From: Eledone cirrhosa
Lineage: Eukaryota
Assembly (NCBI GenBank): GCA_964016885.1
Contig: OZ024741.1
Span: 162,006,001 to 162,070,000, forward strand
Direction of reading: 5' to 3'
Length of the DNA stretch: 64,000 nucleotides
Shown here one piece after another: positions 32,101 to 64,000 of this stretch. The notes under the pieces were generated by a model that was given only the letters and a program-made list of their open reading frames with translations, searched no databases and was not told the origin of the DNA. The position numbers were made by a program, and so were the translations under genes. Every line of letters begins with the position of its first letter. Positions within the stretch are counted from its first letter, which is position 1.

Positions 32101-34439
32101 TGCCTTTCATCTTTTCAGAACCAGGGTTAGTTCTTCCTCTCTATATCTTTCTCATCCACTAAACTCATTTGACTTATGGCTGGGCATCTTCCCCTCTCCT
32201 CCCTATAGCAAATTTGCAGAGTTGTTAGAATGTTAGATAGGATATTTTGTGGTAAGAATCCCAGCACTCGGTGCTTTCTGAGCTCAAATCTCACTGAGGT
32301 CAACTTTACCTTTCATCCTATCAAGATCAATAAAATATAATAATACTGAGTCCAATACTGAGGTTGATTCTTTTTCTATATTTCTTCCTCATTTCCTCTT
32401 TCTCTCTCTCTCTCCTGTTTTCTCTGGAAGAAATTGGCTGCATTTTGGCCTGGAGAGGGGATGGGCTCCACCAGGTTTAAACTGCCTCTACAATTCCATC
32501 GTTACAGGTCCATCCATCTATCCATACATACATACATACATATATAGAACCTCTTCACCATTCACCACCACCCGCATGCATAAACACAAGAAGTCATGAG
32601 GCTTAGTATTCGTTCCTGTTTTTATAGTGCTAAGTGGATCAAACAAACCGTCTCTTTCCCAGGTAAGCTAACAGTCTATTTTTTAAAGGCTAGCACCTAT
32701 TCCAAACAGTTATATGAACTAACTGAGGAGGGAGGAGGGGTGGCTTGTCGATGTAGAATTACATGTATTGCCCAAATATACCTTACAAAATTCTTGCAAC
32801 TTATTTGAAGACCTCTAAGTTCATAGTGCAATGTACCTTTACCACTTGTTCATTTTACACAGATGCACACACAAGCATACCACCTTTAATCTTATATACT
32901 TGATTTCATTTTTATTTTCCATTGTGTGTGCGTGTGTGTTGGTGTTGTCTCTCGATCTGAAGATCCCCAGTGTATGCAGTGGCACACACCTTATGGAGAA
33001 GGTCACCCTCAATAGCCCTGATGACCACTGTTCAACATCATCCTCAAACCCAAGGTAGTACTAACTGCAACATTATCCCATTTATTTATATATATGTGTA
33101 TATATATATGTATATATATATAACACATTGGCTCTATTTCATCTATGTTTCTTGTTCCTCCTTACTTTCATTTTCAATATATTTTAACTCATTGCTCCTC
33201 CCATTCCCCTTATTTTCTCCACATTCTGACTCATTCATCTTTCTCCCCTTGTATTCTTTCCTCTCTCTCTCTCCTCTCATTTTTTCTTCTCTATCTCATT
33301 CCTTCCTCTCTCTTCTCACTCACTTCTCTATCTTTCCTCTCATACTTTCCTCTCCACCTCTCTCTCCTTGCATCCCTTCCTTTCTCTCTCTCTTTCTCTC
33401 TGCCCCCTCCCTCTGTGCGTGATTATATGTGTGTGTGGAAAGCAGCATGTCTAACTAACCTTTGAAAGATGTTTGGTTGCCAGGCAAGGGCCCTATTGAA
33501 CTAACTGCTCATTCCTTACTACATTTTCCTCTCCTCTTTTGCAAGTTCTTCTGGCATGATTATTACCTCTTTAGTCCATGTCTTCAGGAAATTCTTGGTT
33601 TTCATCTCTTCCAGAATACCTAACTCTCCATAAAATCAATCATTTAATAATTAATATTATTAACCACATCATCATCATCAAGTCATCAATATTCTATCCT
33701 CATCATAATCATTATAGTCACCATCATCATAAATTGACAATCATTTAGTATCTTTATTATCTATTATTTGTATGTTATTATCTACTTTATTTAGGATTGT
33801 GAATTGGCAGAGTTGTTAGAGTATCAGACAAATGCATGGCAGTATTCATTCCGGCTCCTTATGTTCTGAGTTCAAATCCCATTGAGTTCAACTTTGTCTT
33901 TCATCCTTTCGAGGTCAATAAAATAAAATACCAATCACGTATTGGGGTTAATGTAATAAATTTTTCCCTCCCCTCAAATTGCTGGTCTTGTGTCTCAATA
34001 AGAAATTGTCTACTTTATTTATCCATTATTATTGTTCTTGTCATACATGTTTTAACTTCTATATTTCCATGCTACTGTAAGTTGGATAAGTCTATTACTA
34101 TACTTTCTGCTTTTGTGTTTGAGTCTTAACTGAGAGGCTTAACTTCTCCCAGTCTCTTCTCAACATTTCTTGCTTCCTATATCTTCATCTGGTCTTCCTC
34201 ATCTCATTCTAGCATAGAACATGTTCCTACACTGTCCCCTCATTATCATATCTCGTTTCTGTCATCTTTTATCATCTATTCACCTTTATACCATCTTTTT
34301 TTTATTCATCTTCATCAGCACCTTTATCATCATAGTAATCCATCATTATCACCATCATCATAATCAATGCTATAATCATAGTAATGAGCACACTTATCAT
34401 CATCATTGTCATTATCTGTGACATTATAGTGTAAACTTT

Positions 34440-53494: not shown

Positions 53495-54258
53495 TAAAAG
53501 GAGGTAGGTGTAAAATCCAAACTCGCTATCTTTAATTCGGTATTTGTGCCAACCCTTATCTTTGGTCATGAATTTTGGGTAATAACCGAAAGAATACGAT
53601 CAAATAGCCTCTTTGGATTAACATTACTCGATAGCGTGCGTAGTCGATCAGAGAATCACTCCAGGCAGAGCCGCTACTTGTCCGAATTGAGTCTTGCATG
53701 GCTGGAATGAAAAATCAGTGCTGTGAAAACTATGACACTCGTTCTCTCAAGGAAGATTGCTCGGTGCACTCTACATGTAAATGTAGAATGCAACAAGAAT
53801 TGCAGGAGCTGATGCAGTAATGAATTGTGTGTAATAATCGAGAATACTATCGGTCGAAATGCGGTTCCTTCGAAGGGTCTTTGCAGTAATGTTACTCGAC
53901 AGTGTGCGCAGCTCGCAGATCAGTGTGTCACTCCAGGTAGAGTCGCTAATTCTCCGAATTGAGAGATCACGGCTCCGGTACTATGGGCATGGGGTTATAA
54001 TGACTCCGGAAAGAATCGCAGGACAGATTTTACGGGCAAAAACAATCAACAAGAGACCCAGGGATAGACCCCGAACAAGATGGTTGGATAACATCCATGA
54101 ACCTGGTTGGTCTCGCTTGGGGATCCAGCCGGATCAGTTGGAAACGATTGCTTCTGACAGGACCCGCTGGAAGGAGTGTTTAATGACTCTGTCCCCATGA
54201 CCTTCTCAAGAAGAAGAAGAAGAAGAAGAAGAAGAAGAAGAAGAAGAAGAAGAAGAAG
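53495..54258 (+). mobile_element. Rex3/Expander-like RTE 3' fragments (rearranged) with a (GAA)n tail
   Basis: EMRFLRRV..RIERSRLRYYGH..RPRDRPRTRWLD. Confidence 0.88.
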
Positions 54259-56525: not shown

Positions 56526-57202
56526 AATGTCTGTACGTAATGAGGGAGTGAGAGGGGAGAGAAAGAAAGGCAGAGGTGAAGTGACGAAGTGACTCTCTCC
56601 TCCTCCTCCTCCTCCTCCATCTCCCTATTCGTCACAGCGATAGAGGGGAGGAATGTTAGTGTGTTACAAAGAGAAAGAGTGAGAGTGAGAGAAACAGACA
56701 GACTAAAAGAGAGGGATAGCTGGAGAGAGAGAGAGAGATAGCAACCACGCGCGCGCGTGTTTCCACTGTCGGACAGACAGACAGAGAAATTGCTGGTTAT
56801 ATATTATAAGGAGACTAGCAGAAAACCGCCCCCGGGTGGTTTTCTGCTAGTATATATATATATTACACACACAGAAATGTATATATATTTCTGTGTGTAT
56901 ATATATATATATTACACACACTGAAATCTATATATATTTCTGTGTGTATATATATATATATATTTCTGTGTGTGTATATATATATATATATATTACACAC
57001 ACACAGAAATGTATATATGTTTCTGTAGCACTCCTCAATTCCCCCTCTCTCCCTCCCGCTATCCCCCTCTCGTAGTCTGTCTCTTTCTTTCACTCTCACT
57101 CTCTCTCTACGCGTGCGCAAAAAACATTCGCACGCGCGCACGTGTTTCCACTGTCGGACAGACAGACAGAGAAATTGCTGGTTATATATTATAAGGAGAT
57201 AA

Positions 57203-58311: not shown

Positions 58312-59231
58312 TAATTCTGATAAAAAGGATAAGTTCTTACGCCAATTTTAAGATCTAGGCCTGAGGACTCCCTTTTCCATTTTCCTTCAAATTGTTTCAA
58401 TTAGGGGACCATTTATTACATTATGTTCTTGGGGGGGGGGGGGGTCGATTCTCTGCTCACCCCCACCCATCCAATCACTTTCTTATCTTTTCTTTCTTTT
58501 CCTTTCCCTTTCTCTGGAAGAAATCGGCTGTGTTCAAACCCGGAGAAGGATAGACTGATGTCAATGCCCAAGACTGCGTTCCTACGACTCCTCGAGGAGT
58601 TCAAGACCTATGGGTGGATGGATAGATAACTTGTACAATAACAAAGCAATATTAGGGTATTTTAAAACAATACTTTGGGCATTATAATATTGGATAATTT
58701 TGTAGTTCTTTCTCTTTGTTCAACAATGTATATCTGTATATATACATAAGGTGGCCAATTGACAGTCATTAGACCGTCACAGAATACTTTGCAGTATTTA
58801 TTCTGACTCTCTGCGCCCTGAGTTCGAATCCCACTGAGATCAAATTAACGAATTATCCTTTTGTAGGTCGATAAAGAAAGTATCAGTGAAGTACTGAGAC
58901 TGTTTCTCTCTGTTTCTCACTTTCTATGTTTCTTTCTCTAGAAGAAATCGACTGTGTTCACACTGGCACAGGGATGGGATCATGGATGTGTGCATGTGAT
59001 TGTGTGTGTGCGCTCGCATATCTGTGTGTATGTACGTCTGTGTGTGCGTGCGTGTGTGTGTGTGTGTGTGTGTATGTGAGCGAGTGTGTGTGAATCTGTG
59101 TGTGTGTGTGTTTGTTTACCATTTGTATTATCGGTCTATTTCTTGACCTTTAAAATAATTAAATAAGTATTATGAATAAGGTCAAGAAATAGACAAACCA
59201 ACAGATAAGTAATCTGTGTGGTTATATGTAC

Positions 59232-59273
<42 letters not shown>

Positions 59274-59565
59274 ATGTATAGTTATGTATGTATGTATGTA
59301 TGTATGTATGTATGTATGTATGTATGTATGTATGTATGTATGTATGGGCCCAGCACTATGTGTCAATAATTGTCACAAGTGTAGTGTTTGTACCAGAGTT
59401 TTCAAGTCGCTGGCTGGACTAAAAAGTCACACTCGTTCAGCGCATCGGTAGGGCTTCTCCTACATGGATATAAAGTAGTGGCCGTACTCGAAAACAAGTT
59501 GGCAGCCACCATGTATGTATGTATGTATGTATGTATGTATGTATGTATGTATGTATGTATGTATG

Positions 59566-60687
59566 TTATCTCTTTCTCTTAATTTCGAGTATATTTTTTT
59601 GACCGGCCACCTTCCTGGTGGCAAGGTTGTAAAAGAAAAGAAATTGTCATCCCTTGAATGGCAAGAATGTTTTGCAAATTTTGAAGGTGCCAGCTATCGC
59701 AGCCATTTGTAGACTATGAATTAGGGAGCTGCGCTTTTTGTCCGCAAATCCAAGTTCAGTCATACTTTGGTTGGTATATAACCCGTAGCACCAATAATGA
59801 TGGGTATGAAGCTAAAGGTGTATCTTGGATACTGGATTTGTAAACTCCTCATCAATGGTCCGTAGATGTCCTCCTTCTCCTGTATTTTTCTGACAACATT
59901 TACATCAAGTGGGCAGCTGATCTCCACAACAGAACACGTTTTCAATGTGTGGTCCCAAACTACAATATCAGGCCGGTTGTGCTTTAATTTGGTGGCAGTT
60001 TTTATTTTCAGGTTCCACCAGTATTCCTTAGTGCCATCTGTCTCAATATATTCTTCCTCGTTTGTTGTTAATTTTGTTTTCCGAAGTGCGTTCCAGATGG
60101 TTCTAGCTATCCCATCGTGTCTCATGGGGAGGTAGTAGCGAGATGACATTCTTTCGCAGCTGGCAACAATGTGGCTTACATCCTCGATCTTTGTTTTACA
60201 TAGCCTACATTTATTGTCAGCTGCTGGCCCTCCTCTTTTGTGCAGCAGATATTTGGTAGGGAGTTCTTGTTCCTGTATTGCATAGAGATATCCCTCAAGG
60301 TGTGATGTCATAAACTTGTCGGAACTCCATGCCAGGCTTTTTGAGTGGTTTATCCCCTCTATGGTCTGTGTTTTACGCCTCAAGTATCCATGCACAACTT
60401 TATCTGTAAATTGGTCAATTTTTTTATCTTGTTTGAACATTGTATAGGATCTTCCGATTTCTCTGGGTGAGAGATTTATATCAGGCTTTATTCCATATCT
60501 CTCCTCCAGATCAGTCGCTATTCTAATGATATTTCTTTTTTCATGGTCATAAACCTGGGCAAGATGGTTGCCAACCTTTTTCCTCTGTTGAAGGTGTTGC
60601 TTCAGTGTCACTATCCGGGTCTCATATGTTGTTAATATTGATTTTAGACCCCGGCCACCTTCCTTGCGTGAGAAGTATAGCCTATCC
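59566..60687 (-). mobile_element. R4/Dong-clade non-LTR retrotransposon, 5'-truncated copy 1
   Basis: RLYFSRKEGGRGL, AIQEQ, CCHC knuckle CRLC..H..C, RHD, and RLE nuclease RPDIVVWD..VEISCP..K..Y; flanked by (TATG)n. Confidence 0.9.
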
Positions 60688-60718
<31 letters not shown>

Positions 60719-61436
60719 TGTATGTATGTATGTATGTATGTATGTATGTATGTATGTATGTATGTATGGGCCCAGCACTATGTGTCAATAATTGTCACAA
60801 GTGTAGTCTTTGTACCAGAGTTTTCAAGTCGCTGGCTGGACTGAAAAGTCACACTCGTTCAGCGCATCGGTATGGGTTCTCCTACATGGATATAAAGTAG
60901 TGGCCGTACTCGAAAACGAGTTGGCAGCCACCATGTATGTATGTATGTATATATGTATGTATGTATGGGAAGGGAGCTCTTAAGAGTCAATAGCCATCCA
61001 AAATCACCGGGAGAGATGACCCCTTAGCCTTTGTCAAGGCAGAATTCTAGGAGAAGGAAAACTCTGATATAACACCTGCAACCCTGATGGTATCCAATGA
61101 TGTTGACTTGTTCTTCTTTTTGGTAAATATCATCTTGGTTAAGAGAGTGGGACTGGCTTTGTGCAGCGCCTTTGCTCACTATAAAAGCTTCACAGCACAG
61201 GCATTGCTTTATATCTGGAGATCTCTCTGCACTTGTCATCACATGGTACCATGGGCCCTGCACTATGTGTCAATAATGGTCACAAGTGTAGCCTTTGTAC
61301 CAGAGTTTTCAAGTCGCTGGCTGGACTAAAAAGTCACATTCGTTCAGCGCATCGGTAGGGGTTGTCCTACATGGATATAAAGTAGTGGCCGTACTCGAAA
61401 ACGAGTTGGCAGCCACTATGTATGTATGTATGTATG

Positions 61437-62218
61437 TTATCTCTTTCTCTTAATTTCGAGTATATTTTTTTGACCGGCCACCTTCCTGGTGGCAAGGTTG
61501 TAAAAGAAAAGAAATTGTCATCCCTTGAATCGCAAGAATGTTTTGCAAATTTTGAAGGTGCCAGCTATCGCAGCCATTTGTAGACTATGAATTAGGGAGC
61601 TGGGCTCTTTGTCCACAAATCCAAGTTCAGTCATACTTTGGTCCAAGCGGGTTGGTATATAACCCGTAGCTCCAATAATTATGGGTATGAAGCTAAAGGT
61701 GTATCTTGGATACTGGATTTGTAAACTCCTCATCAATGGTCCGTAGATGTCCTCCTTCTCCTGTATTTTTCTGACAACGTTTACATCAAGTGGGCAGCTG
61801 ATCTCCACAACAGAACACGTTTTCAATGTGTGGTCCCAAACTACAATATCAGGCCGGTTGTGCTTTAATTTGGTGGCAGTTTTTATTTTCAGGTTCCACC
61901 AGTATTCCTTAGTGCCATCTGTCTCAATATATTCTTCCTCGTTTGTTGTTAATTTTGTTTTCCGAAGTGCGTTCCAGATGGCTCTAGCTATCCCATCGTG
62001 TCTCATGGGGAGGTAGTAGCGAGATGACATTCTTTCGCAGCTGGCAACAATGTGGCTTACATCCTCGATCTTTGTTTTACATAGCCTACATTTATTGTCA
62101 GCTGATGGCCCTCCCCTTTTGTGCAGCAGATATTTGGTTATATGTTCCTGTATTACATAGAGATATCCCTCAAGGTGTGATGTCATAAACTTGTCGGAAC
62201 TCCATGCCAGGCTTTTTG

Positions 62219-62219
<1 letters not shown>
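61437..62219 (-). mobile_element. R4/Dong-clade non-LTR retrotransposon, 5'-truncated copy 2
   Basis: Same family, ORF runs to its natural stop at 61518, different 5' truncation, flanked by (TATG)n. Confidence 0.9.
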
Positions 62220-62249
<30 letters not shown>

Positions 62250-62847
62250 TGTATGTATGTATGTATGTATGTATGTATGTATGTATGTAGGTTTCTTGGT
62301 GAGGAGGGTGACTTTGGACATCCTGCAGGACTAAAAACAAAACCTGTCAAAGGGCAAAGGAGCTCTTAAGAGTCAATGGCCATCCAAAATCACCGGGAGA
62401 GATGACCCATTAGCCTTTGTCAAGGCAGAATTCTAGGAGAAGGAAAAATCTTATATAACACCTGCAACCCTGATGGTATCCAATGATGTTGACTTGTTCT
62501 TCTTTTTGGTAAATATCATTGGTTAAGAGAGTGGGACTGGCTTTGTGCAGTGCCTTTGCTCACTATAAAAGCTTCACGGCACAGGCATTGCTTTATATCT
62601 GGAGATCTCTCTGCACTTGTCATCACAAGGTACCATGGGCCCAGCACTATGTGTCAATAATTGTCACAAGTTTGTACCAGAGTTTTCAAGTCGCTGGCTG
62701 GACTAAAAAGTTACACTTGTTCAACGCATCAGTAGGGGTTCTCCTACATGGATATAAAGTAGTGGCCGTACTCGAAAACGAGTTGGCAGCCACCATGTAT
62801 ATATATAAATGTATGTATATATGTATGTATGTGTGTATGTTTATGTC

Positions 62848-62961
62848 AGGTCACCAGTTGGTGCTACTGGTAACATGTATCCCAGTACAACCTGTCCCAT
62901 GGTCGGGTCGTTGGCGACTAAACTGGCAACCCTACCAAGGTTTCTTGGTGAGGAGGGTGAC
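62848..62961 (+). ncRNA. Twister-like ribozyme fold at the 5' end of the full-length SINE
   Basis: P2 gtca/tgag; L2 CC; P3 gttg..tactgg/ccagta caac; L4 GTCCCATGG; 3' GAGGG. The cleavage-site strand and P1 are non-canonical. Confidence 0.5.
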
Positions 62962-63613
62962 TTTGGACATCCTGCAGGACTAAAAACAAAACCTGTCAAA
63001 GGGCAAAGGAGCTCTTAAGAGTCAATGGCCATCCAAAATCACCGGGAGTGATGACCCATTAGCCTTTGTCGAGGCAGAATTCTAGGAGAAGGAAAACTCT
63101 GATATAACACCTGCAACCCTGATGGTATCCAATGATGTTGACTTGTTCTTCTTTTTGGTAAATATCATCTTGGTTAAGAGAGTGGGACTGGCTTTGTGCA
63201 GTGCCTTTGCTCACTATAAAAGCTTCACGGCACAGGCATTGCTTTATATCTGGAGATCTCTCTGCACTTGTCGTCATATGGTACCATGGGCCCAGCACTA
63301 TGTGTCAATAATTGTCACAAGTGTAGTGTTCGTACCAGAGTTTTCAAGTCGCTGGCTGGACTAAAAAGTCACACTCGTTCAGCGCATCGGTAGGGGTTCT
63401 CCTACATGGATATAAAGTAGTGGCCGTACTCGAAAACGAGTTGGCAGCCACCATGTGTGTATGTATGTGTGTATGCATGCAGTCTATCGATCTATTTATC
63501 TATCTATCTAATGGAAAAACTAATGGAAACATTGTTTCCTTGGATCGATTTGACGAGGTTCACCCCACCCGGCAAGCGAATGAGGTCTGGGATCTTGTCA
63601 ATCGATCAGAACG

Positions 63614-63700
<87 letters not shown>

Positions 63701-63717
63701 CTACGTATTCCTCTACG

Positions 63718-64000
63718 TATTCCTCACCGGACAACCGGTGTGGGCCCCGTTCGTGAGGCGAGCCTTCCCACGACTCGTCTCGCTGACCGAGCTGCAGTCC
63801 TGGGTCAAGCAGAGACCGAGGAAAATGGGCGACTGGCACATCGAATGTGCTTAGGCGTTCACAGCCCTCTGGCAGGCGGACCCGGCGATCAGTGGAGACT
63901 CCACTTCGTCATTCTATAGAGGGTTGGTCCGCAGCAAGTGCGACGATGCGCTCGGTGAAACTCTAGGCGTAGAGGAAGATGAACTAGCCAGTCTGTTCGG
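63718..64000 (+). mobile_element. L1/Tx1-like LINE ORF2 fragment (post-RT), running off the window
   Basis: Abrupt GC-rich segment after (TCTA)n, reading PVWAPFVRRAFP...WHIECA*...FYRGLVRSKCDDALGETLG; the family assignment is from memory of similar elements. Confidence 0.5.

Follow-up and report, generated by a model that had tools for sequence, protein, structure and literature searches.

How did copies of two retroelement families come to alternate, on opposite strands, among arrays of a single four-letter repeat? The locus that raises this question lies in a 64,000-nucleotide stretch of the Eledone cirrhosa genome (assembly GCA_964016885.1, contig OZ024741.1, positions 162,006,001 to 162,070,000 of the forward strand), referred to here as the window and used for all coordinates. 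A stack of seven retroelement copies interleaved with (TATG)n occupies 59283-63475 of the window. Two of the copies are fragments of a long interspersed nuclear element (LINE) of the R4/Dong type, called Dong below, and five are copies of a short element related to RTE retrotransposons. The seven copies probably arose by separate target-primed insertions, two of them by a Dong element with a likely preference for (CATA)n, and five by an RTE derivative that would favour these arrays from the opposite strand.

Layout of the cluster and the Dong target

The five short copies (S1 to S5) lie on the + strand and have one common 3' end and four different 5' ends, S1 and S2 starting alike. The two LINE fragments (Da and Db) lie on the - strand, differ at their 5' ends and have the same 3' junction, which in the sense direction reads ...AGAGATAA directly followed by CATACATAC. 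A preliminary description of this DNA had claimed both arrangements, with TATG arrays bounding the short copies, and both hold; the two rightmost arrays (62798-62844 and 63456-63475) are degenerate, with TATG mixed with TA/TG. (CATA)n flanks both sides of both Dong copies, with 13 and 20 units around Da and 5 and 17 units around Db. The features of the cluster, with strand where one applies, are as follows.

59233-59346: left compound microsatellite, (TCTG)10 then (TATG)16; no RTE-derived copy before the array; probable founder target
59347-59513, +: S1, 167-bp 3' part of the RTE-derived element; C2H2 coding remnant at 59347-59448, stop, 3' hairpin
59514-59565: (TATG)13, from the S1 3' end to the Da 3' end
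59566-60688, -: Dong copy a (Da), 5'-truncated; post-reverse-transcriptase (post-RT) region, CCHC knuckle, RHD, PD..E-type restriction-like endonuclease (RLE)
59566-59646, -: Da 3' untranslated region (UTR)
59606-59622, -: conserved 3'-UTR hairpin of the Dong lineage, 6 bp with a 5-nt loop, covarying across relatives
60689-60768: (TATG)20, joining the Da 5' truncation point to the S2 5' end
60769-60935, +: S2, 167-bp copy, 5' end as in S1; 5/167 sites differ from S1
60936-60967: (TATG)n, 8 units including one variant
60968-61419, +: S3, copy of about 450 bp, the most diverged
61417-61436: (TATG)5, from the S3 3' end to the Db 3' end
61437-62219, -: Dong copy b (Db), truncated further from the 5' side than Da; open frame of 233 amino acids to the stop
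62220-62289: (TATG)17 + TA, joining the Db 5' truncation point to the S4 5' end
62290-62797, +: S4, copy of about 510 bp
62798-62844: degenerate (TATG/TA/TG) array
62845-63455, +: S5, at 611 bp the longest copy; 63082-63101 holds the RTE 5'-UTR motif and about 63420-63451 the 3' stem-loop; neither B box nor CORE motif
63456-63475: degenerate (TATG) tail of S5, then (TCTA)n

The arrays are read as targets because (CATA)n sits at two different Dong 5' truncation points, beyond the reach of a 3' tail. No further Dong pieces were found in the window beyond the arrays, which therefore did not break up a longer copy at a later time; neither family was found elsewhere within the window. Outside the cluster, perfect (TATG/CATA) arrays of at least four units account for 20 bases among 59,200, and loosely defined arrays cover 0.38% + 0.31% of that sequence, where (TA)n reaches 2.7% and (TG)n 0.9%. 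These coverage figures describe the window and are not a genome-wide test or statistic, because the locus was picked for its array pattern. The preliminary description had made this Dong family specific for (CATA)n. We retain the claim in the form of a preference, since arrays flank both ends of Da and Db and a related metagenome locus (L001) ends alike, and it is likely that the Dong lineage seen here prefers (CATA)n over the usual TAA.

The LINE fragments belong to the R4 clade

Da encodes a CRLC..H..C knuckle, an RHD, an RPDIVVWD..EISCP nuclease motif and the post-RT region, and it matches Pfam zf-RVT above the cut-off. A 10-bp deletion in Da shifts the frame near the C-terminus. No RT domain remains in Da or Db, where it was lost through truncation; the PF00078 RT domain is present in 53 of 54 longer relatives, and P0222, 61% identical to the window Dong, has RVT_1 and no match to an apurinic/apyrimidinic endonuclease (APE). 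A profile made from 15 relatives gives a weak alignment (E 0.0007) with the RLE of R2 proteins of solved structure. The closest named protein, from Argonauta hians, is 61% identical over 309 amino acids and is sister to the window Dong in the tree (support 98/94), which points to an octopod host. A Bombyx mori R4-type protein, whose record is not named Dong, is 28% identical over 320 columns. The trees comprise other relatives and this B. mori protein.

An N-terminal C2H2 pattern occurs in 0 of 21 relatives (first 350 amino acids scanned); R2 and NeSL elements differ in this respect. At the N-terminus, 11 close relatives can be aligned with 10 distant R4-type proteins, ones from B. mori among them, at an hhalign probability of 99.9. 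Passages of PMC7998251 describe this region of R4/Dong elements as Myb/SANT-like and without zinc fingers, and the Myb label for the relatives is taken from that paper, not from a domain scan. On sequence evidence, the assignment of the window fragments to the R4 clade is well supported: the CCHC knuckle, RHD and PD..E motif, together with RT in the longer relatives, bear out the earlier proposal of an R4/Dong element with an RLE nuclease. Dong in the narrow sense targets (TAA)n, and here all four junctions lie in (CATA)n. The 5' end, where R4/Dong elements have an HDV-like ribozyme, is absent from Da and Db. A further protein, P0057 (248 amino acids, recorded at NCBI under a Pseudomonadota metagenome-assembled genome), is 65% identical to the window Dong and looks near-identical to the Argonauta protein where aligned; it is probably animal DNA in a bacterial bin.

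The short element resembles a bipartite RTE derivative

The short copies had been labelled a short interspersed nuclear element (SINE). That label is withdrawn here, as neither a small-RNA head nor a B box or CORE motif was found in the element, which carries an RTE 5'-UTR motif instead. The S5 region (62700-63600) gave no Rfam match near threshold, and no tRNA was found. In a scan with RNA polymerase III (Pol III) box patterns, S5 had neither a B box nor the CORE motif CCTTGGG, with the proviso that a head could lie further 5' than S5. S5 contains, at 63082-63101, the conserved RTE 5'-UTR motif GGAGAAGGAAAACTC, of which the RTE/SINE alignments supplied with PMC5786205 hold 74 occurrences. The last 167 bases of the element contain a C2H2 coding remnant (above the Pfam cut-off), a stop, a stem-loop (stability z = -2.0) and the repeat. 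Stops break all six frames of S5, leaving no coding capacity between the two parts.

According to passages of PMC9115989, the octopus RTE element RTE-2_OV has a C2H2 finger and ends 3' in a microsatellite, and this description fits the short element's succession of remnant, stop, hairpin and microsatellite. A search for a parent RTE with the 57-amino-acid C2H2 peptide yielded no parent ORF (open reading frame) among the best 150 of 603 matches; each of these matches in 3 to 20 stretches, as multi-finger proteins do. The lack of a Pol III head, the RTE 5'-UTR motif and the RTE-like 3' end together argue for a bipartite non-autonomous RTE derivative, and this is how the sequence is best read; elements of this type are already known (PMC5786205).

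Two further ideas about the short element were tried and rejected. A 5' ribozyme in S5 has no Rfam match and its stability is not unusual (z = -0.5). Mobilisation of the short element by Dong, suggested by the words GTGGCCG and TACTCGAAA in the 3' ends of both families, was set aside since the two families have their tails on opposite strands and unlike hairpins. At window positions 61078-61086, a related family in organism A (run X1) departs from the element and continues into a GATGGCAGCCAA-type end, which suggests a shorter RTE-derived relative with the same 5'-UTR domain.

Five of nine metagenome relatives share a 3' hairpin and end in four-letter arrays

A scan of metagenome contigs gave 31 pattern matches and from these nine relatives of the window Dong, at 47-53% identity. 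The terminal hairpin also found in Da is present in five of the nine, and the other four have neither hairpin nor array. All five hairpin-bearing loci terminate in a four-letter array 60-73 bases past the motif. In L001 the array is (ATAC)n, and the last stretch, GAGAAGTGATA, resembles the window's GAGAAAGAGATAA; L002, L003, L005 and L007 terminate in (TTAC)n, with L002 and L003 representing one family. The hairpin is laid out as CCTT(T)G, a 6-bp stem, a 5-nt loop and YGG, with compensatory changes (positions L001:2782-2842; L002:2699; L003:3088; L005:3203; L007:3001). In an alignment of Da, Db and four of these loci, pairing is kept in 30 of 30 cells and both sides have changed in five of six pairs, in rows that are few and related and with the structure specified by hand. 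In this R4 lineage the conserved hairpin may serve as a signal for RNA recognition.

In a 29-row tree, L001 groups with the window copies in an 11-row group (support 90/95) and the (TTAC)n loci form a separate clade (100/100); a 96-row quick tree agrees on both groupings. DNA motifs of both families gave 0 matches in viral_contigs and genome_contigs, and the Dong protein profile found no relatives in either set. At L003:3159-3312, a (CTTA)n array shades into (TGAC)n and (GACG)n and resembles a host compound microsatellite running past the insertion.

Separate insertions and their alternatives

The stack could instead be the product of duplication in place, or of unequal crossing-over or conversion from array to array, and the recurring unit of short element, array and Dong 3' end, the common 5' end of S1 and S2 and one rare letter common to S2 and S3 would fit such a history. 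We consider it very unlikely. The 5' ends of both partners differ between the candidate units, and partner divergence is unequal: S1 and S3 differ at 9/167 sites, Da and Db at 14/772 (Fisher p = 0.012). Over the common 167 bases, the ten pairs of S copies differ at 3 to 9 sites, and S1 is nearest S5 (3/167), not S2 (5/167) or S3 (9/167). Four read runs were aligned to 60968-62219 (X4-X11, with small word shares, were not used). Among the 16 Db sites listed, drawn from the best 40 of 501 variant rows in the read table, the family majority differs from Db at nine, and Da has the majority letter at eight of these nine. Shared minority letters are nearly absent: of ten in S3, another copy also has two, and one of these two is rare (about 4%). 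The possibility, raised at the outset, that the Dong copies and their neighbours are sister duplicates was thus not borne out; the variant sites and unequal partner divergence favour separate insertions, which the sequences suggest as the simplest reading.

Two other explanations concern the target. In one, Dong depends mainly on arrays laid down as RTE-derivative tails, in a two-element feed-forward. Both Dong 3' ends do adjoin an array with an RTE-derived copy before it, organism G contains the RTE derivative in great abundance, and S3 looks older than Db by hand-counted private differences (12/446 against 9/772, p = 0.066). The same count does not separate S1 from Da (2/167 against 4/772, p = 0.29), and shared targeting alone yields adjacency in an alternating stack. 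The leftmost array has no RTE-derived element upstream, the window's only other (CATA) array of at least four units (32523-32542) lies beside neither family, and L001, from another source, terminates in (ATAC)n with no sign of an RTE-derived partner; we regard such dependence as rather unlikely. In the other explanation, Dong favours short AT-rich repeats only loosely, or comprises subfamilies with different repeats, and the locus is an enriched corner. The read data do contain 3' contexts other than CATA, and octopus Dong-R4 is diverse, with 51 families in a supplement table of PMC13282606 (seen in part). Yet (TA)n and (TG)n are several-fold commoner in the window and neither holds a Dong copy, both 3' junctions lie in the same repeat and the same register, and the repeat unit follows the tree. 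We judge this explanation unlikely.

A number of observations count against separate insertion by a (CATA)n-preferring Dong. Dong copies with both flanks number two, at one ascertained locus. Dong-like 3' ends without CATA in 30 letters are found in at least two contigs at 61466 (X12) and at least one at 61467 (X17). A mixed consensus, ...GAGA-AACAA (agreement 0.74), as against ...GAGATAACATA, comes from 42 contigs at 61467 (X12); the GAGA-AACAA ends are possibly a second Dong subfamily. The bootstrap value of 90 on the branch joining L001 to the window copies is below the 95 mark, and at the metagenome loci tail and target are indistinguishable because 3' ends alone are observed there. One rare letter is common to S2 and S3 (about 4% in X12) and one to Da and Db (15%), and the 5' end of S1 is that of S2; some local copying is possible for these reasons. 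Organism G contains both families in great abundance (12,797 contigs in X12; 98,954 reads in X21). On the supporting side, at least two loose ends at 5' truncation points in other copies of the RTE derivative are TATG/TA arrays, at 61007 (10 contigs, X12) and 61016 (1 contig, X17). The loose ends listed (848 more exist, and 61408-61448 was left out) include no Dong 5' junction.

Proposed history of the stack

Under the preferred reading of separate insertions, a compound microsatellite of the host probably seeded the cluster, because upstream of the leftmost (TATG)16 there is (TCTG)10 and no RTE-derived copy. The Dong RLE would nick within (CATA)n and prime reverse transcription there, guided by the Myb-like N-terminus, by pairing of read-through repeat RNA, or by both. 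The RTE derivative would be carried in trans by an APE-type RTE and would prime on the opposite strand through pairing between its (ATGT)n end and the target; 5' microhomology with the array, ATG at S1 and S2, may close the junction. Tail-target pairing has been proposed generally for RTE tails, and RTE tails have been described as sources of microsatellites and as an influence on site choice (PMC2887409, abstract; PMC6007223). Each insertion would split one array in two, and slippage could regrow both to offer more targets to both families. Any insertion leaves two arrays, so self-expansion is expected and a two-element system is not required for it. A self-expanding two-element system is plausible here, and in part generic to any microsatellite-targeting element.

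A broader history can be put forward tentatively, as a possibility we hold with less than even confidence. An R4/Dong lineage with the 3' hairpin, likely of marine invertebrates, would have left (TAA)n for (ATAC)n and (TTAC)n, with a one-base switch between sister clades. The octopod (ATAC)n branch would then share its target with an array-adding RTE derivative, giving a growing stack.

RLE retrotransposons are the source of RNA-guided gene-insertion tools, and how they change target is an open question. The one-base difference in target between sister clades is the most useful lead from this locus, as the two form a natural pair in which to ask what sets the target; the Myb-like domain, the nuclease and RNA-DNA pairing are the candidates. 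Dong-R4 is among the most active LINEs in octopod genomes, and the proposed process would offer a mechanism for their repeat hotspots and abundant compound microsatellites.

Sequence around the cluster

To the right of the cluster, about 100 unique bases (63511-63614) lie between (TCTA)n arrays and belong to a possible second microsatellite-inserted element (63484-64000). After 63614 come (TCTA)21 and then a GC-richer, ORF-like fragment that reaches past the window end and that we take to resemble Tx1/L1 elements in their post-RT region; searches of 63484-64000 in Pfam and Atlas gave no useful match. To the left, an inverted repeat at 59134-59194 (78% over 64 columns) is possibly a small miniature inverted-repeat transposable element. 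Further left, an open frame at 53838-54200, presumably resembling the C-terminus of an RTE-type LINE, is followed by a trinucleotide repeat and has no Pfam match. Between 55900 and 57050, units of about 38 bases, with cores of (TA)n and (CA/TG), form a satellite-like array, and duplicated blocks of about 70 bases lie at 56740-56820 and 57130-57200.

Comparison with known systems

Papers are cited in this section for the passages concerned. The window lineage resembles Dong of Bombyx mori, DongAg, DongBg (snail), ostracod Dong and the R4 clade in its single ORF with RT, CCHC and RLE, its microsatellite insertion and, in full-length relatives, its Myb-like N-terminus without zinc fingers (PMC7998251; PMC3812793). 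It differs in target. Theirs is (TAA)n, reported for silkworm, mosquito and snail (PMC3812793) and for most insects, molluscs and cnidarians (PMC7998251), and a B. mori Dong 5' junction primer carries TAA repeats (PMC3774820); the window copies are flanked by (CATA)n, and the separate clade terminates in (TTAC)n. Dong-R4 is abundant and recently active in Octopus vulgaris, with 5 families and 1129 young insertions (PMC13282606), and is present in O. bimaculoides (PMC9115989). The link to these octopus families is that the protein named nearest to the window Dong comes from an octopod, Argonauta hians; the passages of PMC13282606, PMC8967140 and PMC9115989 give no target sequence for octopus Dong-R4.

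The short element, with its RTE 5'-UTR motif, RTE-like 3' end and tail, is comparable to Bov-A and WALLSI3, which combine an RTE 5'-UTR domain with an RTE 3' end and a microsatellite tail (PMC5786205). Ceph-SINEs have a tRNA head and a CORE motif, whereas the window element lacks both and keeps a C2H2 remnant.

Waldo, of the R1 clade, targets ACAY repeats (PMC3812793), which include ACAT, the same repeat as (CATA)n. It differs in its APE endonuclease and insect R1 lineage, and the shared target would have arisen by convergence. Other microsatellites too have their RLE elements, such as Togen on (TG)n (PMC4640811). In the literature searched we found no report of R4/Dong on (CATA)n or (TTAC)n; the search did not extend to Repbase, Dfam or the survey by Fell et al. 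2025, which according to a passage of PMC13586686 took in 4,464 animal genomes, and an earlier description is possible. Set beside these systems, the four-letter repeat is likely to be a new target for a known microsatellite-targeting clade.

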